Source: a virus
Length of the DNA stretch: 64,000 bases
Strand: one strand, 5' to 3'
Virus record (IMG/VR): IMGVR_UViG_3300034782_000062
Coordinates: 118,771-182,770 of that record
The translations under genes and the position numbers were made by a program. Positions 48,205 to 64,000 of the stretch are shown here, piece after piece. The notes beneath the pieces were generated by a model, which did not search any database, had not been told where the DNA came from, and worked only from the letters and a program-made list of their open reading frames with translations. Position 1 is the stretch's first letter; each line of letters begins with the position of its first letter.

Positions 48205-48207
48205 TTT

Positions 48208-48790: not shown

Positions 48791-48793
48791 CAT

Positions 48794-49124: not shown

Positions 49125-49129
49125 CTGTT

Positions 49130-49219: not shown

Positions 49220-49220
49220 T

Positions 49221-49307: not shown

Positions 49308-49356
49308 TAGGGCTCCCAGCTATCCTTCGCAAGGAGGACGCAGGGGTGGCCCGCAT

Positions 49357-49721
49357 GGGCCTGATTTGGTTTCGACAGGTACATGAAGTACGTAGGAGCG
49401 TGCCGGAGATGTCTCCTTGCCCGTCAAAACGGGAGGCAAAAAATCAGTTGTCAACACCGATAACTACCATGAAGCACCGCTCGCGAGGGCGGCGTAAGCT
49501 TCCGTTCCACCTGAGGTGCCGCGACTCGGGATGGGACGTCATTTAGTGGCTGGTCAGCTTTCAAGTCTCCGCTCGCTCGGGGCTGACGAGATAGAGAGTG
49601 GACATCTTCCGGGTACGACCTGCCTTGCTGGTCTACCGGTCGTATTGAAGCAGGGCTACGCACGTAGAGCCTACGAATGGACTGTGCGTGGACGCGGGTT
49701 CGATTCCCGCCAGGTCCACCC
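49357..49721 (+). ncRNA. ssrA: tmRNA; tag frame 49450-49497 encodes (A)VNTDNYHEAPLARAA*
   Basis: 5' GGGCCTGATTTGGTTTCGAC; 3' GCGGGTTCGATTCCCGCCAGGTCCACCA with a G-U pair at position 3; tag ends in AA-stop. Confidence 0.92.
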
Positions 49722-49782
49722 ATGGGTTGGCAGCTTGTGGAAAAAGTGTTCGGGGACGGCACTCAATAATCATCCCCAAACA

Positions 49783-49859
49783 CGGGCTGAGGGCTTGATG
49801 GTAAGCCGCCGCGTTCGGGACGCGGAGTAGTGTGGGTTCGACTCCCACCAGCCCGACCA
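49783..49859 (+). tRNA. tRNA-Pro(CGG)
   Basis: CCGCG-ttCGGga-CGCGG; CCA end. Confidence 0.85.
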
Positions 49860-49860
49860 T

Positions 49861-49935
49861 CGGGGTGTTGCGCAAGTGGTAGCGCGCCAGCTTTGGGAGC
49901 TGGAGGTTGCTGGTTCAAGTCCAGTCACTCCGACC
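49861..49935 (+). tRNA. tRNA-Pro(TGG)
   Basis: CCAGC-ttTGGga-GCTGG. Confidence 0.88.
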
Positions 49936-49941
49936 GATTCG

Positions 49942-50145
49942 ATCCGAATGCCAGAGGGATTACATCAACTAACGGTCCTAAGGTAGCGATGTTGCTTGCT
50001 GTAAAAAGACGCTGGCAGGCACTCAGCGACAGCGGTCACAACGAAAGCGGTGGCTGCGTTCCCAGTGCCGTAACCCTCTTCGGAGGAGCGGTGTACGGAG
50101 GCCGAAACGGGGCGCCGTGTGCTATCTCTTGCCCATTTGTCGGAT
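49942..50145 (+). ncRNA. Y-RNA-like element 1 (carries a 20-nt 23S rRNA match)
   Basis: 5' TCCGAATGC..GGGATTACAT / 3' ATCTCTT..TTTGTCGGA frame. Confidence 0.6.
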
Positions 50146-50174
50146 GGAATCATTTTTTCAAAAGGGGTGTAACT

Positions 50175-50729
50175 GTGTCTTCAGGTTATCGTTCAAAAAG
50201 AGCCCGTGCAGTATGTGCTGCGTTTGCTCGTGGTTATCGGGTTAGCGAGGATGGCGCACTGATTTCTCCTTCTGGGTTTGAGCTGTCGGATTCTTATAAA
50301 AACCAGAAGGGGTACAGGATGTTCAATATGCGCCTCCCGGGGGAGGCTGGAAATACAAGCGTTCCTGTTCATCAGCTCGCCGCCTTCCAAAAGTACGGCG
50401 ACAAAGCCATAGAAGAGGGGGTCGAGGTAAGGCATCTTGACGATAATAAAGAGAATAACTCTCCGAAAAATTTACTCATAGGAACGCGCTCCCAGAATAT
50501 GATGGATCGCTCTGAGGAGGTTCGGAGGCGATGCGCAAGAAAAGCCGCAAGGGCGAGAAGGAGACTAACGAATAAACAAGCTCAGCAGCTCATCGAAGAT
50601 AGAGCCGCCGGGAGCACATATCTGGGATTGGTTGAAAAATATGGCATAGCGAAAAGCACTATATCTTACATAGTTAATGGTCACATGTATCCAGAGTTGG
50701 ATAGGTCGTGTTTAGATATCCCGAAGTAG
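50175..50729 (+). CDS. HNH homing-endonuclease-like protein
   Basis: VHQLAAF..YG...EVRHLDDNKENN...NL..GTRSQN..D; C-terminal HTH-like segment; GTG start. Confidence 0.82.
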   Translation: MSSGYRSKRARAVCAAFARGYRVSEDGALISPSGFELSDSYKNQKGYRMFNMRLPGEAGNTSVPVHQLAAFQKYGDKAIEEGVEVRHLDDNKENNSPKNLLIGTRSQNMMDRSEEVRRRCARKAARARRRLTNKQAQQLIEDRAAGSTYLGLVEKYGIAKSTISYIVNGHMYPELDRSCLDIPK

Positions 50730-50809
50730 ACCACTATGGATGTGGGGTAGGCTGTAAACCTATCGTCGCCGCAAGGGGCCGTGAAAGTTCGATTCTTTCC
50801 TTCGGGACC
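50720..50809 (+). tRNA. tRNA-Tyr(GTA)
   Basis: TAGG-ctGTAaa-CCTA; long variable arm; acceptor CCCGAAG/CTTCGGG. Confidence 0.72.
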
Positions 50810-50956
50810 GGGAGAGTCTTTGTGGAGCCCTTCCACCGGGCCTGGTCGTAAGCCAGGTCGTTATAGGGGCGCCATAGTGCGCCTGGCGTGGAGCCATGGG
50901 AACCCACGAAACGGTGGTGGTAGACAAGGAGGTTCAAATCCTCCGGGCTCCCCCGT

Positions 50957-51055
50957 GCCCAAATGCTTGTGGGATTACATTGCGGCGATTGCAGCTAACG
51001 GGTTCGACTCCCGTTTGATAGCCCCGGTGGGCTTTTCTCGCACCTTTTGTTGGGC
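50957..51055 (+). ncRNA. Y-RNA-like element 2 (with T-arm)
   Basis: GCCCAAATGC..GGGATTACAT...ACGGGTTCGACTCCCGT...TTTGTTGGGC. Confidence 0.6.
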
Positions 51056-51059
51056 ATTT

Positions 51060-51136
51060 GCCACCGATGCCAAAGTGGTCGCGGCGCCAGGTTGTGGACC
51101 TGGTTTTAGGAGGTTCGAGTCCTCCCGGTGGTACCA
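51060..51136 (+). tRNA. tRNA-His(GTG)
   Basis: CCAGG-ttGTGga-CCTGG; CCA end. Confidence 0.8.
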
Positions 51137-51169
51137 ATGTGGTAGTATTCCCCCGTTCGGAGGGAAACC

Positions 51170-51751
51170 TTGGCCATCATTGACAAAAGAACGCCGAAGA
51201 CGGCGAACTCAGGAAATGCTCTTGCACGGTTTTTGTTCAACAAAGGGCTGATAAAGCCTGGTGAGAAGGTTCTCGACTTCGGCTCGGGATCGGGTCGCGT
51301 CGCGGTGCCGCTCTCGAAGCAGTGCACGGTGAAGGTGATCGAGGGCAACGAGGGGTGCCTGGCGAACCTGCTCGACTGTGGCTTCGAGAGGCCAGAGCCT
51401 GGCGAGAAGTTCGACGTCGCCATGGCCTTCTTCGTCTTTCAGCACAACACGCTGGAGAAGGTCAGGGCGATCACCCACTCCTTGTCGTACATGGCCAGGC
51501 GGCTAGTCTTCACCTACCCGACTCATGAGCTGCTCGCGCTTCGGCCGGGCAACAAGCTCAAGTGGGTGCCCGCGGCCGAGCTGAAGGAGCAGCCGATTCC
51601 GGACTGCAATCATCTCAGCGGCGTGCTTCACGAGGCTGAGCTTCCCACCCTGTTCGAGACCTCCGAGTTCGACGTCAGCACCCTTCGCTTTGTCGTGGCG
51701 CAGGCCATGGGCAAAGAACGCGTTCGCGAAATCAAGAGCAAGGTCCCGTAG
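51170..51751 (+). CDS. Class I SAM-dependent methyltransferase
   Basis: VLDFGSGSGR, FDVAMAFFVFQH; TTG start. Confidence 0.78.
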   Translation: MAIIDKRTPKTANSGNALARFLFNKGLIKPGEKVLDFGSGSGRVAVPLSKQCTVKVIEGNEGCLANLLDCGFERPEPGEKFDVAMAFFVFQHNTLEKVRAITHSLSYMARRLVFTYPTHELLALRPGNKLKWVPAAELKEQPIPDCNHLSGVLHEAELPTLFETSEFDVSTLRFVVAQAMGKERVREIKSKVP

Positions 51752-51814
51752 CTCAGGTGGAAGAGCGTTGGATTCCTAATCCAAAGGCCGTGAGTTCGAG
51801 CCTCACCGGGATCG
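51742..51814 (+). tRNA. tRNA-Arg(CCT)
   Basis: TTGGA-ttCCTaa-TCCAA. Confidence 0.88.
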
Positions 51815-51882
51815 CCTCACCAGGGGAAAACCGCGAGCTGGCAGATAAGCGTGTACACCGCTTTCGGTCACTTCCCCGCCAT

Positions 51883-51958
51883 AGGGCAGTAGCTTTAATG
51901 GGAAAGCACCGGATTCCAAATCCGGCGATTGGGGGTTCGAGTCCCTCCTGCCCTGCCA
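51883..51958 (+). tRNA. tRNA-Trp(CCA)
   Basis: CCGGA-ttCCAaa-TCCGG; CCA end. Confidence 0.9.
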
Positions 51959-51959
51959 T

Positions 51960-52035
51960 CCCTCGTGGGTCCGCTGGGTGGACTCCTGACTGTCTATCAG
52001 GGTAGAGGCGAGTTCGATTCTCGCACGGGGGGCCA
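51960..52035 (+). tRNA. tRNA-Asp(GTC), second copy
   Basis: CCTGA-ctGTCta-TCAGG; CCA end. Confidence 0.8.
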
Positions 52036-52041
52036 ACGTTC

Positions 52042-52116
52042 GCTCGGTTCGTCTATCGGTTAGGACACTGGCCTTTCACGCCAGTAAGAGGAGTTCGATT
52101 CTCCTACCGAGCACCA
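52042..52116 (+). tRNA. tRNA-Glu(TTC)
   Basis: CTGGC-ctTTCac-GCCAG; CCA end. Confidence 0.9.
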
Positions 52117-52117
52117 T

Positions 52118-52194
52118 GCCCCGGTGGTCTAGTTGGTTTAGGACACTCGCCTGATAAGCGAGAGGTGGTCGGTTCAAGTCCGACCCGGGGTACC
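52118..52194 (+). tRNA. tRNA-Ile(GAT)
   Basis: CTCGC-ctGATaa-GCGAG. Confidence 0.88.
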
Positions 52195-52204
52195 GGAGGT
52201 TGTC

Positions 52205-52576
52205 ATGAGACGGTACAAACAGATTGGCACCCTGACGTCGTTTACGACTGAGGTCGTGCTGAAAGAGCCCGTCCTGGTGACGGATCTCAAAAAGGCTTTT
52301 CAGGATGCCCAGTGGCTTCAGACCTGGGAGGAAGTCTTCTCCAACGGCGTCATCCGATGCGACTACACCAGCCTGAAATCTGGAAATGTTATTGACGTGG
52401 ACATGGTTCCGTTGGCCGATTCCGAGCTGATCGGGGGCCTGCGGATGCTCGCCCGAGAAGAAGGCGTCCTGGAGACGGTCGATGAAGTCATCGGAGAGAC
52501 GAAGGAGCCGATGAAAGTGCACAAGGCAGAGATTGGCGTGATTCAGCGAAACGATCGCGCTGCCCCGCTAGCATAA
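52205..52576 (+). CDS. Hypothetical protein
   Basis: GGAGG RBS, 123 aa; ends inside tRNA-Ile(TAT). Confidence 0.65.
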   Translation: MRRYKQIGTLTSFTTEVVLKEPVLVTDLKKAFQDAQWLQTWEEVFSNGVIRCDYTSLKSGNVIDVDMVPLADSELIGGLRMLAREEGVLETVDEVIGETKEPMKVHKAEIGVIQRNDRAAPLA

Positions 52577-52634
52577 CGGTGAATGCACCGGTCTTATAAA
52601 CCGGCGATTCCGGGTTCAAATCCCGGGTGGGGCA
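52562..52634 (+). tRNA. tRNA-Ile(TAT)
   Basis: CCGGT-ctTATaa-ACCGG; A73. Confidence 0.8.
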
Positions 52635-52894
52635 CTGAGAGGGAGGAAGTCGTCGCGCGAAGGAGCAGCACCTGGCATTCCTGTAGTGTCAGGCGCCCTC
52701 GCATAGGCCTAGCGAGGAAAAGTCGTTCCATGCATATCGCGTAAAGTGCGGCTCAAACGAAGGAACTTGCTGAACTGATAACTAGGCGTTTGAGACAGGG
52801 ATTCGAGACGCTCCGTGCATGAGTGTCTTGCAGGCGGTTTGCGCAAATCGGCTGCCCTGGGGTACAGGCAGCTCGTCCTCACGACCCTCTCTTT

Positions 52895-52969
52895 GCTCGG
52901 TTAGTTCAGTCGGAAGAACGCCTGCTCGACGCGCAGGAGGCCGTTGGTTCAAATCCAACACCGAGCACC
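52895..52969 (+). tRNA. tRNA-Val(GAC)
   Basis: CCTGC-tcGACgc-GCAGG (C33 atypical). Confidence 0.78.
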
Positions 52970-53113
52970 GACGAAGCTCCAGAAGCATTTCTGGGTCCCA
53001 CCGCCCAAGACTTGCGCGGTTAGAGGAGGCAACAGGTGGAGTTGTCAGTTAGAGTGGCGCCACTTATTTTCTGGCAGCAGCTATCCCTCACGCGCTCTGG
53101 AACTTCGTCGTTT

Positions 53114-53188
53114 GGTCCCGTAGCTCAACTGGAAGAGCGTTGGTATCACACGCCAGAGGCCCCCGGTTCAACTCCGGGCGGGACCACC
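53114..53188 (+). tRNA. tRNA-Val(CAC)
   Basis: TTGGT-atCACac-GCCAG. Confidence 0.75.
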
Positions 53189-53195
53189 CTTTTTT

Positions 53196-53270
53196 GGGTC
53201 CATAGCTCAGTTGGGAGAGCGCCGCGTTCGCAATGCGGAGGCCGAGGGTTCAAGTCCCTCTGGATCCACC
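53196..53270 (+). tRNA. tRNA-Ala(CGC)
   Basis: CCGCG-ttCGCaa-TGCGG; G3:U70. Confidence 0.88.
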
Positions 53271-53345
53271 TGGAAAAGTCGGGAGGCACCACCCTCAAAG
53301 GGAGCCAGTGCCAGGTGAACGGAGAGGGTGCCCGACCCAGAGTTT

Positions 53346-53422
53346 GGGGCCATAGCTCAGTCATGGGAGAGCGCTACACTGGCAGTGTAGAGGTCGAGGG
53401 TTCGATCCCCTCTGGTTCCACC
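53346..53422 (+). tRNA. tRNA-Ala(GGC)
   Basis: CTACA-ctGGCag-TGTAG; G3:U70. Confidence 0.88.
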
Positions 53423-53642
53423 CAAGCCTTGCAACGTCATGATGCGCGCTGTGGGCGTATGGTAAGAGGTCTCGTCACATGCTGACGGGGCGTGGGGCCG
53501 CGACCAGGGCTAGGTCTGGGGAGAGAGAGGGCTCCAATCATCGGGTTAGCCGAGCGCAGGGTTCCCACCACAGGGGCCTGCGTGTGGGAGCTGGGTGGGG
53601 AATCCAGCCATGGCGTCGTTGGGGCTTGGAACCAAGAAGACA

Positions 53643-53921
53643 ATGCATATTTCAGATAGGACAAAAGAGGCACCAGAGATCGACGCGAAGATGCTCTGGT
53701 ATGAGAACTGGTACGACGGTCCAACGGACGGCGTCTGCGAGTTCGAGGGAGAGAAATTCTGGTTTGTGTGGACCGATGGTGATGATGATCACACTCGTAT
53801 CTACGCCGTCACCAGGATTGATCCGGAGGTGTTGGCCGAGATGGTTCGGCGGCACGAGATCTACCGCGACATCTGCGGCCCGCACACTGATTACGGAATC
53901 AAGTGCGAAGGCGGCGGATGA
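53643..53921 (+). CDS. Hypothetical protein, possibly extending through TGA to 54041
   Basis: WYDGP..GVC...G..FWF...HTDY; the frame stays open for 39 codons after the TGA. Confidence 0.6.
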   Translation: MHISDRTKEAPEIDAKMLWYENWYDGPTDGVCEFEGEKFWFVWTDGDDDHTRIYAVTRIDPEVLAEMVRRHEIYRDICGPHTDYGIKCEGGG

Positions 53922-54045
53922 GCCTTCCCGACCGACGAGCAGTTGGCTCGTTTTGAAGAGGTCTCGAAGGATTGGCCGGAACTTGAGCCTCTCCCTGACC
54001 CTGAGAAAGACGGAGAAGTGATCGGAAAAATCAAGTGGTAAAATC

Positions 54046-54118
54046 AGCCCTGTAGCTCAACTGGAGGAGCGCCAGTCTTACAAACTGGAGGTCGTCGGTT
54101 CGACTCCGACCGGGGCTA
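54046..54118 (+). tRNA. tRNA-Val(TAC)
   Basis: CCAGT-ctTACaa-ACTGG. Confidence 0.88.
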
Positions 54119-54128
54119 CTGAGCACAT

Positions 54129-54201
54129 GGGCTCATAGCTCAACTGGGAGAGCACCTGCCTTGCACGCAGGAGGCTGCCGGTTCGATCCCGGCTGGGTCC
54201 A
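54129..54201 (+). tRNA. tRNA-Ala(TGC)
   Basis: CCTGC-ctTGCac-GCAGG; G3:U70. Confidence 0.9.
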
Positions 54202-54293
54202 CAGAAACCGATAGAAGACAGAAGCGCTGTGACGGGGGGAGCACCGGCTCTTCGATGATGGTCGTGCTCGCCACGCGAGGAGCCGCCCCCCGA

Positions 54294-54575
54294 TCAGCCA
54301 AGCTTCTCTTGGAGCTGACTCCTGATCGCAGACTCTACCGCCTGCGAAAAATTGGCGAGAAATCCGCCAAGCGTGAGAGCAACTTCGACGCTGCCGCTGA
54401 GGATTTGGATGTGCCCTTCCACGCCTGGTCCTGAAAGACTAAAAAGCGTTTCGGAGTTCCATTCGCCTACGAGGTTGTAACGCGGACCTAGCTCCTCGTA
54501 GACCTTATTTATGGCGTCGATGGCTTCTGCTCTACCGATACTCATCGGTTGCGAGATTGAAAGAGTCTTTGACAT
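54294..54575 (-). CDS. Polyhydroxyalkanoic-acid-system-like small protein
   Basis: 93 aa; W....F...G.GV.G.I.I....VEV.L.LG..L...VE..IR..L.EKL pattern; only antisense gene in the RNA island. Confidence 0.55.
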   Translation of the reverse strand: MSKTLSISQPMSIGRAEAIDAINKVYEELGPRYNLVGEWNSETLFSLSGPGVEGHIQILSGSVEVALTLGGFLANFSQAVESAIRSQLQEKLG

Positions 54576-54620
54576 ACCGGAATCATAGCACAATGTGCAA
54601 ATGCGTCCCCAGGACGAAAT

Positions 54621-54695
54621 GCTACCGTGGCACAGTTGGAAGCGCACCTCCTTGGTAAGGAGGAGGTCCCCGGTTCGATCCCGGGCGGTAGCTCC
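54621..54695 (+). tRNA. tRNA-Thr(GGT)
   Basis: CCTCC-ttGGTaa-GGAGG. Confidence 0.9.
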
Positions 54696-54717
54696 GCAAA
54701 ACAAAAAGGGGTTTTCA

Positions 54718-55821
54718 ATGGGTAGCACAGACGCAACCTGCGCCTTGTCCAACTTGCCGATCGGCTACAAGGATGAGGTAATGTGGTTGATGCTCGTCAG
54801 GGGAGTCAACGTCACGGAGACGAACTTGGCGGGTCTTCACCATCAACCGTGGGACCTATGGTTCGTGCGGAACCTTCCTGTTCGAGCCACTTACGACACC
54901 TACACGAGGATCGAGGATTGGGAGGAGGGGTTGATCCTCGACACGACGCTTCAGATGCTTCGCGAGGATCTACTCCCCTTCGAGTTCAAGAAGAGTGAAA
55001 GGTTTTCCTACGAGGATTTGCATGGATGTCCAGCCCCATGCGTGGAGAACCTAAAGATGGAGAACCTGGTCCGCTGGCTCCCGGCTGGTGACGTCAGGGT
55101 CGATCGTCGCCATGACGAGCGACAGAGTGCGGCTCGAATGATCGAGTTGGGTCACCTTTCAGACAAAGAGCGCGACGCGTATCGCAAGCGCATGGACCTT
55201 CCTCCCGAGCCGCACTACGTGACCCAGGCCCTTGTTAGACGAGACGTCTGGGAAGCTCTGTGCGAGATGAAGTGGGATAACCAGGTCGGTCGCATGATCG
55301 GACTCGAAGACATGATGAAAGGGGTCGACGAGCTGATCGCCGTGGCCAAACGGATTCGCAGCGTGCCGAAGAGATACCAAGACCTGGAAGTGCACCTGAT
55401 GTACAGCGGCCAGTGTGAGTACGCGAGCTACATCGCGTCGACGGGAGGCTGCTCTCCCTACGGCGTCGCGGTGGCTCACACCATGCGTTGGCTGGTCAGG
55501 CGGTGTGCTGAAGGAAAAATCGAAGCCCTCGAAGACCTCCGTCCCGCCTTAGGGAGAGGTGCTCAGGTCGCGCACATCGAAAGAATGATGCGGTCGCTCA
55601 GGCTCATGTGGCATCCGCAGCTCTACCAGCAGCGTGCCGACTTCGACACCTGTATGGAGTTTCACCTTCGCTGCGCTCGCATCGCGTTCGACGTCGAGTC
55701 TGACAACATCGAGAAGGCGCAGGAAGAGTTCGACCCGGCCGACGAGGACGACCGCGAAGAGATCGAACACCAGCAGAAACGCTATTCCGATCTTCAACGA
55801 TTGCGGCAGTTTGGGCCGTAG
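54718..55821 (+). CDS. Hypothetical protein
   Basis: 367 aa; MGS.DATC.LS.LPI..D.V start. Confidence 0.7.
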   Translation: MGSTDATCALSNLPIGYKDEVMWLMLVRGVNVTETNLAGLHHQPWDLWFVRNLPVRATYDTYTRIEDWEEGLILDTTLQMLREDLLPFEFKKSERFSYEDLHGCPAPCVENLKMENLVRWLPAGDVRVDRRHDERQSAARMIELGHLSDKERDAYRKRMDLPPEPHYVTQALVRRDVWEALCEMKWDNQVGRMIGLEDMMKGVDELIAVAKRIRSVPKRYQDLEVHLMYSGQCEYASYIASTGGCSPYGVAVAHTMRWLVRRCAEGKIEALEDLRPALGRGAQVAHIERMMRSLRLMWHPQLYQQRADFDTCMEFHLRCARIAFDVESDNIEKAQEEFDPADEDDREEIEHQQKRYSDLQRLRQFGP

Positions 55822-55946
55822 TCGAAAAAAATCCGAAAAAATCGCAGAACAACTGTCAGAAAGGGCGCCCTTGGTGCGTCCTGGTAGACAGGTAGGCACA
55901 AACGACCTTCACTTTTTGGCCCGAGAGGGCATGCAAGGAGGCTCCG

Positions 55947-57533
55947 ATGGCAAACCGAGCACTGTTCAAGAACAAGACTCCGGGACGCATGGTCCCGGAA
56001 ACCACCACCAAGAACGAGGCAGGCGGAAAGGCCTACGCGTTCAGCGACGAGCACGCGCTCGCGCAGTACGCGGCCACCGGTTGCATCAACGGCACCTACT
56101 ACGCGTCGGCGCAGGACCAGCTCGATACGGTCCTTGGCATGGCGAAGAAGTGCTCTTCGGAGTTCATCGCCAAGACGGCGCTGTGGGTCAGGACCCAGGG
56201 GTTCATGAAGGACATGCCGGCGCTCCTGTGCTGCGTTCTCGCAGCACGGAAGGACGAAGAGTCCAGGGCGCTCCTGACCGCCGTCTTTCCCAGGGTCATC
56301 GACAACGGAAAGATGCTCATGAACTTCGTTCAGATCATGCGCTCTGGCGCGGTCGGACGAAAGAGCATGGGATCTCTCCCGAGGCGCCTGGTCCGTAACT
56401 GGCTCAACGAGCACGACGGCAACTGGCTGTTCCGCAACTCGGTCGGTCAGAAGCCCTCGATGGGTGACATCGTGAAGATGGTCCACCCGAAGGCGAAGGA
56501 CGCGGAGCACGATGCACTCTTCGGCTATTTCATCAAGAAGGATCTCGACGGGAAGGCCGAGGCTCTCCCGCCGCTGGTCAAGGAGTTCGAGGCGTGGAAG
56601 CTCGACCGCGATCTCCCGCTGCCGAAGGTGCCCTTCCAGCTCCTGACCAACGAGCAGCTTTCTGACGAGCAGTGGGCGACCATCATCGAGAACGGCAACT
56701 GGCACTTCACCAGGATGAACCTGAACACGGCCGCGAGGCACAACGTGTTCACGATTCGTCCGGAGCTGGTAGAGGTCGTGGCCAAGAGGCTCGCTGACCC
56801 AGCGATAATCCAGAAGGTGAAGGTCTTCCCGTACCAGATCCTGATGACCTACAAGGCGGCGAGCGAGAGCGCTCCTCGCCCGGTCATCAACGCGCTGCAC
56901 GACGCACTCGAAGAGTCGGTGAAGAACATCCCGGCCATCGAGGGTGACGTTGTGGTCTTTCCCGACGTGTCGGCGTCGATGAGCAGCCCGGTAACGGGTG
57001 GCGGCGGGTGGAGCACCCCTTCGACGAAGGTGAGCTGCATCGACGTCGCGGCGCTCTTCTCGGCAGCCATCCTCCGGATGAACCCGAACGCGACGATCGT
57101 CCCGATCGACACGAAAGTTCATCCGACCTTCAAGATGGAGCCGAGAGACTCCGTCATGACCAACGCCAAGAACCTCGGCGCGTTCCGCGGCGGCGGAACC
57201 TCTCTCGGAAGCGCAATCCAGTGGATGAACGGCAAGAAGATGGACGCGGACGTGATCATCTTCGTCAGCGACAACCAGAGCTGGGCGGATCCGTGGGGGG
57301 ACGGACGTGGAACCCTCATGCTGAGCGAGTTCCGCAAGGTCCAGAAGCGCAGGCCGAACGCGAAGCTCATCTGCATCGACGTCCAGCCTTACGGGAACAC
57401 CCAGGCTGGCGACGAGAAGCACGCTGTGCTCAACGTCGGTGGGTGGAGCGACCGGGTCTTCACGGTGATCGACTCCTTCCTGAAGGGCGACCCGAAGGGG
57501 TGGGTTGACACCATCAAGGCCGTCGAGGTATAA
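55947..57533 (+). CDS. rsr: Ro60/TROVE-domain RNA-binding protein with vWA domain
   Basis: NEAGGKAY, GTYYAS, GFMKDMPA, RNL-like RMNL, VFPYQ, vWA MIDAS DVSASMS, SDNQ, LICIDV.PY, VGGWSD. Confidence 0.93.
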   Translation: MANRALFKNKTPGRMVPETTTKNEAGGKAYAFSDEHALAQYAATGCINGTYYASAQDQLDTVLGMAKKCSSEFIAKTALWVRTQGFMKDMPALLCCVLAARKDEESRALLTAVFPRVIDNGKMLMNFVQIMRSGAVGRKSMGSLPRRLVRNWLNEHDGNWLFRNSVGQKPSMGDIVKMVHPKAKDAEHDALFGYFIKKDLDGKAEALPPLVKEFEAWKLDRDLPLPKVPFQLLTNEQLSDEQWATIIENGNWHFTRMNLNTAARHNVFTIRPELVEVVAKRLADPAIIQKVKVFPYQILMTYKAASESAPRPVINALHDALEESVKNIPAIEGDVVVFPDVSASMSSPVTGGGGWSTPSTKVSCIDVAALFSAAILRMNPNATIVPIDTKVHPTFKMEPRDSVMTNAKNLGAFRGGGTSLGSAIQWMNGKKMDADVIIFVSDNQSWADPWGDGRGTLMLSEFRKVQKRRPNAKLICIDVQPYGNTQAGDEKHAVLNVGGWSDRVFTVIDSFLKGDPKGWVDTIKAVEV

Positions 57534-57546
57534 CAGATGCAACATC

Positions 57547-57604
57547 GCCCAAATGCCTCCGTGACTACATCTCGTACATGACGTCACGGGAAAACTTGTT
57601 GGGT
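57547..57604 (+). ncRNA. Y-RNA-like element 3 (minimal; 14 nt after the rsr stop)
   Basis: GCCCAAATGC.TCCGTGA-CTACAT...TCACGGGA..CTTGTTGGGT. Confidence 0.65.
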
Positions 57605-57891
57605 GTTGTTCTTTGAGAACATTATGCCAACGGAAGGCTACAATGATAGGCTGGGGGCGTTGAAAGGCGCCCCCAGCCGAATGTGGGGCCGAACAGCAGG
57701 CAACAACGGGTAAGGAAGAGAGCTGTCTAGTACTGCCCGTGGCCCAACCATTTCGTAGTAGCAAAGCCGGTTAGCTGTGCTGGCAAAAGCAGCCTGCGGA
57801 GGCGCTGAGAGCGTCCGATGATGCAGGAAGCAGGATTTCGTAAGTGCCTGCGCCACAGCGCCCAGTACTGTGCGTCAGACGCGGACCCGTG

Positions 57892-57992
57892 GTCCGAATG
57901 CCCGTGGGACTACATTACAATCAAAGCGTAAAAACACATGCTACTGCATGCCGTCTCGCACCCCTTGTCGCCCACACTGTCTGTTGTCTGAC
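57892..57992 (+). ncRNA. Y-RNA-like element 4
   Basis: GTCCGAATGC..TGGGACTACAT...TCTCGCA...TTGTC. Confidence 0.55.
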
Positions 57993-58098
57993 ATGGCTGT
58001 TGGTTCCCTTTCGGGGCCTTCAGCCACCACGCCTCCGAGAGACGCGAGAGAGTGCCTCGTGCCATGGATACGCCCTGGCCGGAGACGTTCCCTTTGAG

Positions 58099-58178
58099 TG
58101 CCAAATGCCGTGGTGACTACATCGACTGGTACTCGATTGGGCCTGGATAGGCCTAATGTCACTGCACTCTTGTTGGTG
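58099..58178 (+). ncRNA. Y-RNA-like element 5
   Basis: TGCCAAATGC.GTGGTGACTACAT...GTCACTGCAC.CTTGTTGGTG. Confidence 0.6.
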
Positions 58179-58211
58179 CTCACACTTAGCTTTTTCCTCA
58201 CGAGGCCCCCA

Positions 58212-58658
58212 ATGACATATGAGATGCAGAATGAGCCAGGGAAGGGCCGCTGCGAACGCTGCGGACTTTTTCTGGATACGGTGGAGAGCGCCTTCGATTC
58301 GAGGCAGACGGGCGAACGCATTTGCGAGCGCTGCGCCTGGATGGAGCACGTCAAGACAGGTCAGGCTCCGATTGGAAAGAAGGTTGCGAGTGCTTGCGCG
58401 GACCCAACACATCTGTGTTATGGGTTTGTTTTTGAGGACGAGCACCCGCCGCTCACGGACTGCGTCAAACGTGGTGACGAGGCTGAGCTGCTCGAAGTCT
58501 TCAGGGCTCAGGTTCATCAGGATTGGGACGTCCGGGCGCTCATCGAGATGAAGCGAGCGATCCGTGACAAGGCCGAGGAAGGAAACGACCCCCTGTGGCA
58601 GCAGAAGCTGGAGGTCATCGATCAAGAGCTGGCTGGCCGCGGAGTTTTTGTGGGATAG
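58212..58658 (+). CDS. Hypothetical protein with N-terminal zinc finger
   Basis: CERC...CERC. Confidence 0.55.
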   Translation: MTYEMQNEPGKGRCERCGLFLDTVESAFDSRQTGERICERCAWMEHVKTGQAPIGKKVASACADPTHLCYGFVFEDEHPPLTDCVKRGDEAELLEVFRAQVHQDWDVRALIEMKRAIRDKAEEGNDPLWQQKLEVIDQELAGRGVFVG

Positions 58659-58664
58659 AAAACA

Positions 58665-58769
58665 AGCCGAATGCTTTGCGGGATTACATTTTGGTTCGAC
58701 TCCAAGTGGCGGCTTTTTATGCCGCCAGGCGCGTTGGGCGCTTCAAGATCTCGCGCCCACTTGTCGGCT
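58665..58769 (+). ncRNA. Y-RNA-like element 6 (T-arm-like insert)
   Basis: AGCCGAATGC..GCGGGATTACAT.TTGGTTCGACTCCAA...TCTCGC..CTTGTCGGCT. Confidence 0.65.
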
Positions 58770-59180
58770 TAAATTTTTCCTCAGCCCTTTGCGAGGTGAG
58801 GGTTGAATCACCGAGGCCCCGCTGGTGGCGATCCAGACCTTTTGCGAGGTGTAGGCAACACCAAGTCCGTGCCGGTGGATTAAAGGCTTTGGCCGTCATG
58901 CCGAGAAATCTGTCTGCCTTCGGCCTCGGTGGCATCGAATACGAGGTGGCGGAGCCTGGTCGTGCTCATGTCGTCCTAGGGACACGCATGAGAGAGGAAG
59001 GGCAGCGAGGCCCCCCAGGTATCGTATGGGTGTGACGGATGAAACACTCTTTCGCATCCGCCAGGGGATCAACCCAGTACCGCCTTATTTTTTAGGAGGT
59101 TCCTGGAAACGGGACGAGGCGACTGAGCGATGCGTAGTGTCGCTACGGCCGAGGAGAAAGGTTCGATTCCCTCTCATTTA

Positions 59181-59286
59181 TGCCGAATGCAGGCGGGACT
59201 ACATTGACTCCAACATTGTCAAGCCAGGGTTCGACTCCCTGTCGTATAGGGGCACGGCTGCCCATTTCTCGTCAAACTTGTCGGCA
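59181..59286 (+). ncRNA. Y-RNA-like element 7 (T-arm)
   Basis: TGCCGAATGC.GGCGGGACTACAT...CAGGGTTCGACTCCCTG...TCTCGTC..CTTGTCGGCA. Confidence 0.65.
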
Positions 59287-59290
59287 TTTT

Positions 59291-59366
59291 GCCTGTGAGA
59301 CCGAAGTGGCCGAGGTGCCAGCCTTCCAAGCTGGTTGAAGTGGGTTCGAGTCCCATCGCAGGCTCC
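59291..59366 (+). tRNA. tRNA-Gly(TCC)
   Basis: CCAGC-ctTCCaa-GCTGG. Confidence 0.82.
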
Positions 59367-59505
59367 GGCTGAATGCCTAGTAGGGATTACATTGGACTAT
59401 GGATCCCGTAGTTGCAGGTTCGAATCCTGCCCACGCCGCTCTTATGGCGTGGTAGCCCAATTGGTAGAGGCGCGTAAACTGTTTCTCTACGCCTTTTTGT
59501 CAGCC
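59367..59505 (+). ncRNA. Y-RNA-like element 8 (YrlA-type, circularly permuted tRNA domain)
   Basis: T-arm GCAGGTTCGAATCCTGC, loop-closed acceptor CCACGCC/GGCGTGG, then D-arm, inside the GGCTGAATGC/TTGTCAGCC frame. Confidence 0.75.
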
Positions 59506-59509
59506 GATT

Positions 59510-59584
59510 GCCGGTGAAGCCAAAGTGGTGCGGCGCCACGTTGCCAACGTGGAGAAGTGGGTTCAACTCCCATCACCGGCTCCA
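59510..59584 (+). tRNA. tRNA-Gly(GCC)
   Basis: CCACG-ttGCCaa-CGTGG; CCA end. Confidence 0.88.
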
Positions 59585-59646
59585 GCCCGAATGCTTGTCG
59601 TGAGTACATTAGGGTATGTATACCTCACGGCGTTTCCTTGTCGGGC
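59585..59646 (+). ncRNA. Y-RNA-like element 9 (minimal)
   Basis: GCCCGAATGC..TCGTGAGTACAT...CTCACGG..CCTTGTCGGGC. Confidence 0.62.
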
Positions 59647-59656
59647 AAAAATTCAT

Positions 59657-59980
59657 AGGCTGAATGCCCAGTGGGGAGTACATCGCATGCCAAGCGCGAG
59701 GCCCAGGTTCGATCCCTGGTCCCGTCTCAACGCCGGTCTCAGTGGAATGACCTCTGTAGGGCGGAAACGTGGTGGAAGGCGATGACTGATTTGATGGAAG
59801 TGCGATCGGCTTCTTTCTCATATCGATCGTTCGGAAGCTCCGTGATGAGCCCTTCACCGGGTTCAAGTCCCGGCGGCGTCGAATTTTCACTCGGTTCGAA
59901 ACCGAGCGCCGTGACTTTAGACGGGATGGTGTAGTGGTAGCACACGAAAACGTTCCTCTCTACGCCTTTCTTGTCAGCCT
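59657..59980 (+). ncRNA. Y-RNA-like element 10 (permuted tRNA domain with ~200-nt insert)
   Basis: AGGCTGAATGC...CAGGTTCGATCCCTG-GTCCCGTCT...AGACGGGAT-GGTGTAGTGGTAGCAC...CTTGTCAGCCT. Confidence 0.65.
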
Positions 59981-59984
59981 ATTT

Positions 59985-60062
59985 GGCCCTGTCGTCTAGT
60001 CAGGTTTAGGACGCCGGCCTCTCACGCCGGAAACGTGGGGTTCAAATCCCCCCAGGGTCACC
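59985..60062 (+). tRNA. tRNA-Glu(CTC)
   Basis: CCGGC-ctCTCac-GCCGG. Confidence 0.88.
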
Positions 60063-60088
60063 GCCCACCGGGGGCACTCGTGAAAAAT

Positions 60089-60230
60089 ACGAATGCCGCT
60101 CGGGTTTACATCTGCGTAACTCACGTAGAGACAGGCTCCGTGAAAGCCGTAAGGCATAAGCGGTAGTCGGGCATCGGGCGCCGCGCGGCGCATGCGCTTC
60201 GCGGTGTGGTAACTCGCGCACCTTTGTCGT
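60089..60230 (+). ncRNA. Y-RNA-like element 11
   Basis: ACGAATGC.GCTCGGGTTTACAT...AACTCGCGC..TTTGTCGT. Confidence 0.55.
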
Positions 60231-60297
60231 CAAACCTTAGGCGCGCGTGTCTCCGGTGGGTATCAATTCGTTCACAAAATCAAAAAGGGGAATTGTC

Positions 60298-60876
60298 ATG
60301 GACCGCATCATCTGTGGGAAGAAGACGCACAAGGTCGGTGTGGCGCCGACGATCGTTCTCGTGCGTCCCAAGTACCCGCACAACATCGGCGCCGCGGTTC
60401 GAGCGGCTTCATGCTTTGGAGTCGAGCAGGTCTGGTTCACTGGCGATCGAATCAAACTGGAGGCCGAGAAGCGCATCCCTCGCGAGGAGCGCATGAAGGG
60501 CTACGCTGGGGTGGACATCATCCAGCATGACCTTCCTATCGAGCGCTTCGAGCAGGTGACGCCGGTCGCGATCGAGGTGCGGCCGAATTCCGAGCTGCTC
60601 ACTGAGTTTGAGCATCCTGAGGACGCGATGTATATCTTTGGTCCTGAGGACGGATCGATCCCAAAGCAGCTTCTCACCATGTGCCATCGTTTTGTGATGA
60701 TTCCGACAAAGCACTGCACCAACCTGTCAGCGGCTGTCTACCTGGTGCTCTATGATCGCTTGCTCAAACGTCAATGGAGCGGGCTCGAAGAGGCCAAGCC
60801 ACCGTCACAATGTCTCGATGAAGACCGGGGCTGGTGGAGCTATGATGACGTCGACGGAGAGATGCCGTTTCAGTAG
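60298..60876 (+). CDS. SpoU/TrmH-family (SPOUT) RNA methyltransferase
   Basis: LVRPKYPHNIGAAVRAASCFG, YIFGPEDG, IP...CTNLSAAVYLVLYDR. Confidence 0.85.
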   Translation: MDRIICGKKTHKVGVAPTIVLVRPKYPHNIGAAVRAASCFGVEQVWFTGDRIKLEAEKRIPREERMKGYAGVDIIQHDLPIERFEQVTPVAIEVRPNSELLTEFEHPEDAMYIFGPEDGSIPKQLLTMCHRFVMIPTKHCTNLSAAVYLVLYDRLLKRQWSGLEEAKPPSQCLDEDRGWWSYDDVDGEMPFQ

Positions 60877-60951
60877 GCTGTCGTGGCTCAATAGGCAGAG
60901 CAGCGCATTCGTAATGCGCAGGTTTCCGGTTCGATTCCGGACGACAGCTCC
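60877..60951 (+). tRNA. tRNA-Thr(CGT)
   Basis: GCGCA-ttCGTaa-TGCGC. Confidence 0.9.
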
Positions 60952-60980
60952 GTTCGAACACAAATCAAAAAGGGGAACAG

Positions 60981-61361
60981 ATGACTGCACAAATGCACAA
61001 TAGAACGCATTCGATCTTCGTGCTCTTGGTTGGTGGCGAGGTCGTCTACACGACGAGCGACTCTAACGACATCATGCGTGAAGCTCGCGAGTCGGTCTTC
61101 CAGTACATATCCGACCACAAACGTCACGACTTGCCGCTCAAAATGACCGACGAAGAGCTTCGATGGATGGATATCGAGGTTCACGAGCTACTCGGTGAGA
61201 GGAGTCAGGTGGCGCTGCCTTATCAGCCATGGGTCGATGACTACTATCGCGAGATGAAAGAGGGCGAGCGCCAGGACGAGGAGCGTGAGTACAAACACTT
61301 CGTCGAGCTGCGCCGGAAGTGGGAAAATCGTTTCCAGTCCGAGCAGAGGGTTAATAAGTAG
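60981..61361 (+). CDS. Hypothetical protein
   Basis: AAAAAGGGGA RBS, 126 aa. Confidence 0.6.
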   Translation: MTAQMHNRTHSIFVLLVGGEVVYTTSDSNDIMREARESVFQYISDHKRHDLPLKMTDEELRWMDIEVHELLGERSQVALPYQPWVDDYYREMKEGERQDEEREYKHFVELRRKWENRFQSEQRVNK

Positions 61362-61366
61362 AACAG

Positions 61367-61441
61367 GCCACCGTAGCTCAACTGGCAGAGCGGCTGATTT
61401 GTAATCAGCAGGCTCCCGGTTCGATTCCGGGCGGTGGCTCC
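61367..61441 (+). tRNA. tRNA-Thr(TGT)
   Basis: GCTGA-ttTGTaa-TCAGC. Confidence 0.92.
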
Positions 61442-61442
61442 T

Positions 61443-61517
61443 GGCCGAATGCTAGAGGGATTACATTGCATTCGTCTCTTAAACGAAAAACGCACAGTCT
61501 CTCAATTCTTGTCGGCC
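61443..61517 (+). ncRNA. Y-RNA-like element 12 (carries a Lys-CUU anticodon arm)
   Basis: GGCCGAATGC.AGAGGGATTACAT..TTCGT-CTCTTAA-ACGAA..GTCTCTC..CTTGTCGGCC. Confidence 0.65.
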
Positions 61518-61543
61518 ACCAATTTTTGTGATTTCTTTACGAC

Positions 61544-62293
61544 GTGACGGAGCCGCTCCAATCCGCAAAGATGGTGCCCAGTGACGTCGGCCCTGAGCAG
61601 GGCTGGCACCTCCGCGAAAGAATCAACATCGGTGGGCTTACCTGTCTCGTCTACGACGTCGAGGACGACTGGCGCCCAAAGGAAGTGACAGGTGTCAAAG
61701 GTATAAAAAAAATCCGAAAGGGTCGCGGCAAAGTCAAGTGGGATGAGCAACCGCTTGGCGCGGTGACGGACAAAGAGATCGCCGAGGAAGTCGGCGTCGT
61801 TCCGTCCGCGGTGCTCAAAGCGCGGCGCAAGCGCGGCGTCAAGAGCAAGCACCCCGCACGGACAAAACTGAAAATCGATTGGGATGAACAGCCGCTCGGC
61901 AAGATGCTCGATCAAGAACTAGCCGAAAGACTCGACGTCGATCCGTCTACAGTGAGCCGCGAACGACGAAAACGGAAGATCCCAAGAAAATTCGTCCGGA
62001 AGACGAAGACACACAATAAGGGCATCGACTGGGATGCTCAACCGCTCGGCGAAGTATCGGATGAGAGCTTGGCCCGAAAGCTCAAGGTCAATCCCAAGTC
62101 CGTCGCGAGTGCTCGTCGAAGGCGAAACATTTCTCCCTGGCAAGAGAAGAAAAAGATTGTTTGGGAGCACCAGCCCCTCGGTGAAATATCCGACGCGGAC
62201 ATCGCGAGGGGGCTCGGAATAGATGCCGGGACTGTGACGGTCGCACGGAACAAGCTCGGCATCCCACCCTACAAGAGACCCAAGAAAAAATAG
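61544..62293 (+). CDS. Repeat HTH-like DNA-binding protein
   Basis: Four ~45-aa repeats WD.QPLG...D...A..L.V....V...R....I. Confidence 0.72.
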   Translation: MTEPLQSAKMVPSDVGPEQGWHLRERINIGGLTCLVYDVEDDWRPKEVTGVKGIKKIRKGRGKVKWDEQPLGAVTDKEIAEEVGVVPSAVLKARRKRGVKSKHPARTKLKIDWDEQPLGKMLDQELAERLDVDPSTVSRERRKRKIPRKFVRKTKTHNKGIDWDAQPLGEVSDESLARKLKVNPKSVASARRRRNISPWQEKKKIVWEHQPLGEISDADIARGLGIDAGTVTVARNKLGIPPYKRPKKK

Positions 62294-62429
62294 GCTGAAT
62301 GCTGAGGGGACTACATCACCCCGGGGGTCGCAGGTTCGAGTCCTGTCGGCGGCGCAAGTCGCTGTAGCTCAGTTGGAAGAGCACCGGGCCACGGGCGAAG
62401 CCCATGCGTCTCGTCGATCTTGTCAGCCT
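62292..62429 (+). ncRNA. Y-RNA-like element 13 (YrlA-type, permuted tRNA domain)
   Basis: GCAGGTTCGAGTCCTGT-CGGCGGC-gcaa-GTCGCTG-TA-GCTCAGTTGGAAGAGC inside the AGGCTGAATGC/CTTGTCAGCCT frame. Confidence 0.78.
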
Positions 62430-62439
62430 TTAGTTCTCG

Positions 62440-62628
62440 TGCCGAATGCGCTCGGGATTACATAGTGCACGCCAGCCGAAAGGCAACCAGGTGGTCGGCT
62501 TTTGGCCACCCGGCGATGACCAGCTTGCGATTCGCCGTGAGCCCCGGCACTTCACCGGGGACACAAACTCCGCGTTTTGAGGGGAGACCCTCTGTGCATG
62601 TCGCGGTATCTCGGGAGAATTGTCGGCA
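62440..62628 (+). ncRNA. Y-RNA-like element 14
   Basis: TGCCGAATGC.CTCGGGATTACAT...TATCTCGGG..TTGTCGGCA. Confidence 0.6.
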
Positions 62629-62690
62629 CATTTGCAAAGTAACAGCTTATGAACATTGAGCTGTTTGTAGTACGCGGTTATCTTTGTTCT

Positions 62691-63119
62691 ATGCGATGTC
62701 GAAAATGTGGAGAGGATAAAGATAAGACCATGTTTCACTGGAAAGTCAAGGGTGAGAGGCGCCATACAACGTGCAAAGAATGCGAATCAGCCTATCACAG
62801 GGACTACTATCTGAAGAACAAGGGCGAGCTGGGAAGGAAGGCTGTCAAGAGGAATAGGGTGAATATTCAAAGGAACAAAAGGCGTGTATTTGAATACCTG
62901 TCTAAGCATCCATGTGTTGACTGTGGAGAGCCAGACCCTGTGGTGTTGGACTTCGATCATGTGCGTGGTGAAAAAAGCTTCAATGTCGCAAGTATGATCT
63001 CAGAGACGTGTTCCTGGGAACGGATAGAAGAAGAGATAAGGAAGTGCGAAGTTCGCTGCGCCAATTGCCATCGTAGAAAAACGGCCAAAGAGCACGGCTG
63101 GTACGACTTCAATGAATAA
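62691..63119 (+). CDS. HNH endonuclease-like protein with zinc fingers
   Basis: CRKC..CKEC; PCVDCG...LDFDHV...KCEVRCANCHRRKT. Confidence 0.8.
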   Translation: MRCRKCGEDKDKTMFHWKVKGERRHTTCKECESAYHRDYYLKNKGELGRKAVKRNRVNIQRNKRRVFEYLSKHPCVDCGEPDPVVLDFDHVRGEKSFNVASMISETCSWERIEEEIRKCEVRCANCHRRKTAKEHGWYDFNE

Positions 63120-63123
63120 TTAT

Positions 63124-63196
63124 GGCGCCTTGGTCAAACGGTAAGACGAGACGCTGCAAACGTCTAGTCGGCGGTTCGACTCCGCCAGGCGCCTCC
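63124..63196 (+). tRNA. tRNA-Cys(GCA)
   Basis: AGACG-ctGCAaa-CGTCT; U73. Confidence 0.9.
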
Positions 63197-63216
63197 GCAA
63201 CGCAAAGGAGAAGAGC

Positions 63217-63994: not shown

Positions 63995-64000
63995 CTATGG

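Follow-up and report, generated by a model that had tools for sequence, protein, structure and literature searches.

Fourteen candidate Yrl-type Y RNA genes with a common handle around the Ro60 gene of an uncultured phage

The final 64 kb of a 182,770-bp IMG/VR virus record (IMGVR_UViG_3300034782_000062), referred to here as the window, come from an uncultured phage whose sequence is present in wetland and sediment metagenome DNA runs only. Towards its end the window carries a gene for the ring protein Ro60 (Rsr) and, on both sides of that gene and dispersed through a large tRNA array, 14 elements that we name Yrl1 to Yrl14. Since the handle shared by these elements is the consensus of the Rfam families YrlA and YrlB, our analysis supports their assignment as Yrl-type bacterial Y RNA genes of the family to which YrlA and YrlB belong. 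We consider it likely that the 14 genes combine a common Ro60-docking handle with differing interior modules, that their RNAs are processed with the tRNA array and bind Ro60, and that they serve as tethers or gates.

The elements were located with the pattern AATG[CT]-N5-13-[TA]ACAT, applied to both strands of the window. On the plus strand it occurs at 14 sites between 49.9 and 62.6 kb and at one stray site (3106), roughly the one chance site expected; the minus strand has none. Within the next 60-330 nt, every one of the 14 sites has TTGT together with a segment complementary to its 5' arm, and all 14 elements lie on the Ro60 strand (Table 1). Their lengths range from 60 to 328 nt, with interiors of ∼15 to ∼280 nt. 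An earlier note on this DNA had listed 14 elements of 58-324 nt, the third of them starting 14 nt after the stop codon of a TROVE gene; pattern and stem searches and folds recovered every one of them, with starts displaced by 0-4 nt and lengths close to those first given, and Yrl3 starts 12-14 nt past the Ro60 stop (57533). For YrlA, Chen et al. (2014) describe genes on the Ro60 strand at up to about 4 kb from Ro60; here Yrl3 to Yrl12 lie within 4 kb of Ro60, and Yrl1, 2, 13 and 14 at 4.8-6 kb. A scan of the phage genome's other 119 kb with the covariance model described below (R1) found no further elements.

Minimum-energy folds show one architecture in all 14 elements. The ends pair in a closing stem (NCCGA/UCGGN) of 4-10 bp, 6-10 bp in 12 of the 14, with a (C/U)(G/A)AAUGC strand opposite CUUGU(C/U)(G/A). 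The shared internal loop, AUGC(N) opposite (N)CUUG, is accompanied by a second stem, NNGGGAY/RUCUCNN, of 7-9 bp, which keeps a constant register directly 5' of an unpaired (U)UACAU. The sequence of the second stem varies between the elements while complementarity is kept.

Related loci were gathered with an alignment of 20 close Ro60 proteins (A1), a single-protein query having found none. They comprise 80 viral contigs, 80 metagenome contigs and 80 GTDB species genomes and, together with the locus of Myxococcus phage Mx1, number 241. In the viral loci a simple motif-plus-stem scan found 129 elements on the Ro60 strand vs 11 on the opposite strand. The second stem was outside the criteria of that scan; its strands form a mean uninterrupted helix of 7.8 bp with their own partners, compared with 4.8 bp with the partners of other loci. 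On a MAFFT alignment of elements (A2), RNAalifold recovered the closing stem only, as the second stem had its 3' strand misaligned; a subset (A3) of 18 short elements, to which other phages contribute 16, was then used with an explicit structure. With the two-helix structure, 95% of the cells in A3 are paired and both-side changes occur in 12 of the 14 pairs, while none of 500 shuffles reached the observed score and slid registers fell to 28-47% paired. Both stems of the frame thus covary strongly, which bears out the earlier description of 5' and 3' segments that pair with compensatory changes. A hit of a separate composite pattern scan (L248) was discarded as a chance match inside coding DNA.

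The covariance model R1, built from A3, recovers 11 of the 14 window elements (E 7e-13 to 3e-3), the next match in the window having an E value of 2.3. Beyond the window it gave 191, 207 and 271 matches in the three locus sets, 669 in the 241 loci, and all 669 are on the Ro60 strand. When R1 was run on whole Undibacterium, Hahella and planctomycete genomes (5.7-7 Mb), matches were confined to the rsr locus, and on the whole phage genome to the Ro60/tRNA region. These data bear on a reading in which the elements would be repeats at the DNA level, either miniature mobile elements with terminal inverted repeats or homing-endonuclease targets, and not RNA genes. Closing stems are by their nature terminal inverted repeats, two HNH endonuclease genes stand among the elements, and a 23S rRNA-like block in Yrl1 (see below) includes what we take to be the I-CeuI recognition sequence. 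The strict strand polarity relative to Ro60 argues against DNA repeats, as do the G-U pairs and compensatory changes in two nested helices and the interiors, which are unrelated to one another, unlike the copies of a mobile element; nor were target-site duplications, or copies away from rsr, seen. We regard repeats of this kind as barely conceivable.

The handle places the elements with known bacterial Y RNAs. Rfam gives the consensus cggCgaAUGC..ggGgaaCUAc...cUuGucGccg for YrlA and GcGaAUGC..cgGGAUUACAU...UUUGuCgcgC for YrlB, and the motifs in these lines, CgaAUGC, GGGAUUACAU or GgaaCUAc, and UUGuCg, are the motifs of the shared frame. At relaxed thresholds Yrl2, 7 and 8 align end to end with YrlA and Yrl9 with YrlB; in a local search, Yrl8 matches YrlA positions 1-114 (36.0 bits, E 3e-6). 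The animal Y RNA family (RF00019) has no match at E <= 10 between 47 and 64 kb, and the 5' strand of Yrl4, UGGUCCGAAUG, also fits the animal GGUCCGA motif (Stein 2005, cited in PMC4201824). The tRNA-like domain of YrlA, with T arm, closed acceptor-like stem and D arm in that order, is found in Yrl8 and Yrl13; Yrl10 has it with a large insertion, which relative to Yrl8 adds ∼190 nt after the T arm and ahead of the D-arm-like hairpin. Yrl2, 6 and 7 have the T arm only, and the other eight elements lack the domain. Yrl3, 4, 5, 9 and 12 have the architecture of YrlB, a handle with a simple hairpin, and Yrl9, Yrl3 and Yrl12 resemble YrlB in hairpin form. Chen et al. (PMC4201824) proposed the handle of bacterial Y RNAs as the binding site for Rsr.

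Alignments indicate that the gene amid the elements encodes an intact, canonical full-length Ro60/Rsr, as expected from its earlier description as a TROVE gene. The match to Pfam vWA_Ro60 (3e-14, 53.7 bits) passes the cut-off of 27.7, that to Pfam TROVE (0.002, 17.8 bits) is below the cut-off of 23, and the 98 bits scored against the NCBIfam Rsr equivalog do not reach 900. Residues 14-515 align with residues 20-533 of Deinococcus radiodurans Rsr (2nvo; 1e-26), that is, over the full length, and the alignment with the Ro60 of Thermus phage phiLo (9kop/9l5y; 9e-17) is also full length. The DxSxS MIDAS residues D340, S342 and S344 are invariant in A1. About 8000 bacterial and metagenomic Ro60 proteins match the window protein at ∼50% identity; its closest relatives (P0002-P0015) are 59-75% identical, and one 2.6-kb contig among the loci compared (L087) represents them. 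The nearest cultured relative is the Ro60 of Myxococcus phage Mx1 (43.6% identity), a phage that has two Yrl-type RNAs.

Table 1. Elements, genes and 23S-like carriers. Positions refer to the window unless a locus (L) is named.
Feature	Position	Strand	Evidence or remarks
Yrl1, 204 nt, complex interior opening with 23S rRNA-like block 49970-49998	49942-50145	+	6-bp closing stem, 7-bp second stem
Yrl2, 103 nt, T-arm-like hairpin	50955-51057	+	R1 32.0 bits, E 6e-6; Rfam YrlA end to end 24.7 bits
Yrl3, 60 nt, minimal hairpin, apical loop CUCGUAC	57546-57605	+	R1 58.3 bits; R1 seed member
Yrl4, 86 nt, hairpin type, interrupted closing stem	57890-57975	+	R1 31.7 bits, E 7e-6; fold
Yrl5, 88 nt, two small hairpins	58095-58182	+	R1 31.7 bits; 10-bp closing stem, 8-bp second stem
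Yrl6, 107 nt, T-arm-like hairpin and two further hairpins	58664-58770	+	R1 46.8 bits, E 7e-10
Yrl7, 108 nt, T-arm-like hairpin	59180-59287	+	R1 37.3 bits; Rfam YrlA end to end 27.3 bits
Yrl8, 141 nt, T arm, closed acceptor-like stem and D arm (complete YrlA architecture)	59366-59506	+	R1 30.1 bits
Yrl9, 62 nt, YrlB-like hairpin	59585-59646	+	Rfam YrlB positions 1-78, 27.3 bits; R1 34.7 bits
Yrl10, 328 nt, Yrl8 paralogue, three T-arm-like hairpins	59655-59982	+	9-bp closing stem, 8-bp second stem
Yrl11, 142 nt, complex interior, 4-bp closing stem	60089-60230	+	R1 21.7 bits, E 0.003 (weakest accepted match)
Yrl12, 77 nt, hairpin, 7-nt apical loop CUCUUAA	61442-61518	+	R1 50.6 bits; R1 seed member
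Yrl13, 138 nt, T arm, acceptor-like stem and D arm	62292-62429	+	R1 35.2 bits; partial Rfam YrlA match 36.5 bits
Yrl14, 191 nt, complex multi-hairpin interior	62439-62629	+	7-bp closing stem, 8-bp second stem, in register
Ro60/Rsr gene, 528 aa, TROVE ring and vWA/MIDAS domain	55947-57533	+	Pfam, structure and homologue alignments
tRNA/tmRNA (transfer-messenger RNA) array around the Yrl elements	47375-63995	+	ARAGORN: 31 tRNAs and 1 tmRNA; extra tRNA-like matches
SpoU/TrmH-family 2'-O-methyltransferase gene	60298-60876		Inside Y-RNA/tRNA array; best, weak matches to TrmJ, TrmL and RlmB models
HNH endonuclease gene 1	50175-50729		Among Y RNA genes; starts 29 nt past the end of 23S-like Yrl1
HNH endonuclease gene 2	62649-63119		Among Y RNA genes
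Multi-HTH protein gene (repeated helix-turn-helix units)	61544-62293		Among Y RNA genes
23S-like carrier, phage contig	L074:133-322		
23S-like carrier, phage contig	L247:1340-1575	-	
23S-like carrier, bacterial (Clostridia metagenome-assembled genome, MAG)	L170:7836-8013		
23S-like carrier, bacterial (cultured Undibacterium sp. TS12)	L185:12627-12758		

Behind the common handle the interiors differ, as the proposal of a modular repertoire with different inserts on one frame had implied: six elements have T arms, two or three of these with D-arm-like hairpins as well, five are simple hairpins and three are complex. The complex ones, Yrl1, 11 and 14, form larger folds that are not tRNA-like. A BLAST search with the interiors of Yrl4, 5, 11 and 14 against 246 loci found no relatives. 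The interior of Yrl1 resembles 23S rRNA, its opening block matching the sense strand of Escherichia coli 23S rRNA at 20 of 20 positions without a mismatch and at 26 of 29 overall; we take this block to correspond to approximately positions 1917-1936, which comprise the 3' half of helix 69 together with the junction leading to helix 70. In four other carriers (Table 1) the same block, with the core ACGGUCCUAAGGUAGCGA, stands 4-9 nt past the ACAU of the handle, and in one of them (L247) the likeness spans the helix-69 loop as well (26 of 27). About 0.15 chance matches are expected in the DNA searched, and five independent lineages carry the block, namely three phages, a Clostridia MAG and Undibacterium. 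On this comparison it looks like a recurrent class of Y RNA that mimics rRNA. We found no paper linking Y RNAs to helix 69; a link between Rsr and the maturation of 23S rRNA has long been known, and a helix-69-like module fits it. A homing-endonuclease site belonging with the HNH gene next to Yrl1 was rejected as the main explanation of the block, because the four other carriers have no such neighbour.

A second kind of likeness concerns anticodon loops. In Yrl12 (61466-61494) the loop reads CUCUUAA, exactly as the anticodon loop does in the phage's tRNA-Lys(CUU), and the loops CUCGUAC in Yrl3 (57568-57584) and CUGGUAC in Yrl5 (58122-58136) resemble those of Thr(CGU) and Thr(GGU), respectively. 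The stems beneath these loops in Yrl3, 5 and 12 differ from the tRNA stems. We treat the 23S-like block and the anticodon-like loops as leads, not as findings.

A count made by one method throughout gives the window 13 elements no more than 10 kb from Ro60 and the next loci 10, 9 and 8, and the 14 of the window are the largest set among the loci compared. Next to related rsr genes, in bacteria and phages alike, arrays of 5-10 are frequent. Ten elements stand head to tail in 1.3 kb directly 3' of rsr in Hahella sp. NBU794 (L199:11630-12932), 6-7 in the same arrangement in Undibacterium spp. (L180, L185 and L202; ∼11630-12970), and many Pyrinomonadaceae MAGs have 5-8. A partial literature search found no published description of such bacterial tandem Yrl arrays. 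Two layouts can be told apart. In bacteria the elements form a tandem array without tRNA genes; the phage-like layout is rich in tRNAs, with the elements scattered among them (35 tRNAs in L003; L124, L181, L246, L136, L111 and L158 are similar), and the window is its largest example. Given how often arrays of 5-10 copies occur at such genes, fourteen is no outlier in kind, and what is unusual about the window set is its number, its dispersal through a tRNA array and its non-tRNA modules. The earlier statement that the set is far larger than the few Y RNAs known per bacterial genome is true when set beside the published counts of one or two per genome, but related loci with 5-10 are common. The 355 YrlAs listed by Chen et al. 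(2014, PMC4201824) come from 254 bacteria and 22 phages, some one or two per genome, and phage phiLo has two Yrl RNAs (PMC12135203).

Half of the window elements (7 of 14) abut a tRNA by 0-6 nt. Yrl1 starts 6 nt past tRNA-Pro, Yrl2 ends 2 nt ahead of tRNA-His, Yrl7 ends 3 nt ahead of a tRNA, Yrl8 has one tRNA on either side, at distances of 1 and 3 nt, Yrl10 ends 2 nt ahead of tRNA-Glu, and Yrl9 and Yrl12 lie directly 3' of tRNA-Gly and tRNA-Thr. Yrl13 overlaps the stop codon of the open reading frame (ORF) 61544-62293. A promoter/terminator scan was uninformative: as weak evidence, its best promoter-like site is at 47063, just upstream of the array, and it found no strong plus-strand terminator inside the array. 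Known precedents connect Y RNAs with tRNA processing, in that Rsr has both YrlA and YrlB as ligands, RNase P accepts YrlA as a substrate, and both RNase P cleavage and CCA addition were shown for Mycobacterium smegmatis YrlA (Chen et al., PMC4201824).

The tight packing against tRNAs and gene ends, together with an array lacking strong plus-strand terminators inside it, would also suit elements that are processing or stability signals of the tRNA-array transcript, guiding cuts by RNase P, Z or E or blocking exonucleases. Their Y-RNA likeness would then be incidental, and they would not be stable partners of Ro60. We think this very unlikely. The bacterial tandem arrays have no tRNA nearby and are found only beside rsr, and in tRNA-rich loci elsewhere only 19% of elements (59 of 306) come within 6 nt of a tRNA. 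In addition, the invariant single-stranded AAUGC, UACAU and CUUG, for which a spacer would have no need, match curated families of Ro60 partners.

The reading that we favour, a set of Yrl RNAs working with the phage's own Ro60, can be set out as follows. The elements would be transcribed with the tRNA array as long plus-strand precursors, and because half of them abut a tRNA, their release by the enzymes that trim the neighbouring tRNAs is plausible. The sequence shows every RNA closed by the conserved Ro60-docking handle, with a different interior module per RNA: mimics of the tRNA body (Yrl8, 10 and 13, and in part Yrl2, 6 and 7), small hairpins (Yrl3, 4, 5, 9 and 12) or larger folds (Yrl1, 11 and 14), one of which copies the helix-69 region of 23S rRNA. 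With the phage Ro60 ring bound to the common handle, a family of ribonucleoproteins (RNPs) would result that differ in the displayed module only. Each module may tether Ro60 to a different host RNA-processing protein or control access to the ring, by analogy with Rsr, Y RNA and PNPase in D. radiodurans and with Ro60, Yrl and PNPase in phiLo, and RNA turnover, repair or surveillance might in this way be reshaped during infection. The simplest reading, drawn from these analogues, would be that a single Ro60 ring takes up 14 alternative RNAs, as adaptors or as gates.

The RNAs could be genuine Y-type RNAs and yet serve mainly as decoys, with no tethering, for host RNA-targeting nucleases, modification enzymes or the host's own Rsr. 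Their modules copy parts of tRNA and rRNA, and they sit within a phage tRNA/tmRNA island; such islands are believed to compensate for host attacks on translation. Because the handle is common to bacterial arrays, the phage RNAs could also bind host Rsr. However, the same module classes and array sizes stand beside rsr on bacterial chromosomes, where counter-defence is inapplicable, the anticodon-like stems are unlike the stems of the phage tRNAs, and we know of no defence nuclease that targets helix 69. A role mainly as decoys is, in our estimate, unlikely. A bolder reading, which we put forward as doubtful, is that Ro60 may be a general display platform: the window phage, like the many phages and bacteria with arrays of 5-10 members, would load a single ring with an RNA library that imitates the tRNA body, anticodon-type loops and the 23S helix-69/70 region, each RNP being aimed at, or neutralising, a different enzyme or nuclease that handles tRNA or rRNA. 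If so, the 23S-like class would be without precedent as a Y RNA that mimics rRNA, and it could steer Ro60 to factors of 50S assembly or repair or shield helix 69.

Several observations weigh against Yrl RNAs that tether or gate Ro60. The Rfam scores are below the gathering thresholds, the best being 36.5 bits vs 69 for YrlA (RF02553) and 27.3 bits vs 97 for YrlB (RF02565); of the covariance-model and Rfam comparison proposed in the earlier note, the YrlA and YrlB alignments and the R1 recoveries thus came out in its favour and the scores fell short. The note had also cited GNCGAAN(0-1)G as the motif through which bacterial Ro60 binds Y RNAs, and Chen et al. (2014) place it near the 5' end of YrlA; in its strict form, GNCGAAN0-1G, it occurs in 4 of the 14 only (Yrl6, 7, 12 and 14). 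Yrl1, 4, 9 and 11 have CGAAUG without the leading G, and Yrl2, 3, 5, 8, 10 and 13 have CAAAUG or UGAAUG with compensating changes in the 3' strand; in the elements outside the strict motif, pairs are exchanged with compensation, for example CAAA/UUGG and UGAA/UCAG. The closing stems of Yrl4 (3 bp, internal loop, 4 bp) and Yrl11 (4 bp) are weak. R1 misses Yrl1, Yrl10 and Yrl14 (204, 328 and 191 nt), probably on account of their length, and motif and stem analysis is the support for these three. Conservation in the alignments stems partly from the search pattern with which the seeds were collected, and no PNPase-binding feature was identified in the elements.

Among published systems, the window resembles the YrlA and YrlB loci of Salmonella Typhimurium and M. 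smegmatis. There too the RNAs have a 5' CGAAUGC, the GGGAUUACAU segment and a 3' CUUGUCG, and they are on the rsr strand and adjoin rsr. The differences lie in number and setting, 14 genes vs one or two, spread over 12.7 kb among tRNA and protein genes and not together with rtcBA in an operon. Unlike YrlA and YrlB, several window RNAs have interiors that are not tRNA-like, and in half of the elements the C-G pair of CGAA is replaced by a compensated U-A or A-U. Bacterial tandem arrays have the same handle, strand rule and mix of short and tRNA-like members, and the Undibacterium array includes a 23S-like member, but these arrays run head to tail directly 3' of rsr, without tRNA genes.

Among phages, phiLo (PDB 9KOP, 9L5Y) likewise has a Ro60 with Y-like RNAs adjoining its gene; its Ro60 binds two Yrl RNAs, and a ternary complex of Ro60, Yrl and host PNPase forms in vitro (PMC12135203). 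The two phiLo RNAs are just upstream of the gene, and the proteins are only ∼22% identical. Since R1 finds nothing in the phiLo locus, the phiLo handle appears to have diverged from that of the window. The mycobacteriophages (22 in Chen et al. 2014) resemble the window in that their large genomes combine Ro60 and a tRNA array with tRNA-like Y RNAs, but the Ro60 of Myrna is 24% identical. R1 gave no match at the Ro60 loci of Myrna, phiLo and NootNoot, which fits a handle and protein that diverged together better than an absence of Y RNAs. In D. radiodurans the Y RNA can tether Rsr to PNPase in the RYPER complex of Rsr, Yrn1 and PNPase (PMC4201824, PMC12135203), an arrangement like that proposed here, in which the handle docks on Ro60 and another module holds an effector; Yrn1 itself is stated to be unrelated in sequence and module order (Chen 2014, PMC4201824).

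Bacterial Y RNAs have so far been seen as one or two partners of Ro60 with a second domain that tethers an effector. The 14 interiors on one handle, together with 669 elements elsewhere, suggest that Ro60 is normally served by a whole set of adaptor RNAs. This is testable, as arrays occur in cultured Hahella and Undibacterium and phage Mx1 carries Ro60 with two RNAs. A specific candidate target, located on the large ribosomal subunit, is suggested by the recurrent helix-69-like module.

The wider setting is a tRNA/tmRNA array with every member on the plus strand, and all tRNA genes of the phage genome are confined to the stretch from 47.4 kb to the end of the window. The phage tRNAs or the tRNA-like Y RNAs could be substrates of the SpoU/TrmH methyltransferase encoded within the array (Table 1). 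The ORFs 54766-55821, 58219-58551 and 60981-61361 received no function from Pfam, NCBIfam or PHROGs, and a megablast search of 55947-62700 against GenBank phages gave no match. Just upstream of Yrl5, a non-coding stretch of 64 nt (58027-58090) shares 86% identity with L003:7528-7590; the phage concerned has a Ro60 of only 50% identity to that of the window. On this conservation the stretch is probably another small RNA, though 58020-58094 folds with no exceptional stability (z -0.9). Two further stretches inside the array, 57606-57889 (284 nt) and 58771-59179 (409 nt), have no convincing ORF, tRNA or Rfam match; the latter ends in a T-arm-like GGTTCGATTCC (∼59161-59177).

Some tRNA-like sequences were not called by ARAGORN. 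A 145-nt stretch at 50810-50953 has a T arm and an acceptor-like 3' strand just before Yrl2, and 49040-49306 holds three units of 84-89 nt in tandem, with sub-threshold scores of 30-41 bits on the tRNA-Sec model; both may be long-arm or interrupted tRNAs. Between two tRNAs, 48151-48209 matches the bacterial small signal recognition particle (SRP) RNA at 28.8 bits, below the threshold of 40. Finally, 59291-59364 was missed by ARAGORN and is a tRNA by Rfam (49.5 bits), with gaps of 3 nt to Yrl7 and 1 nt to Yrl8.

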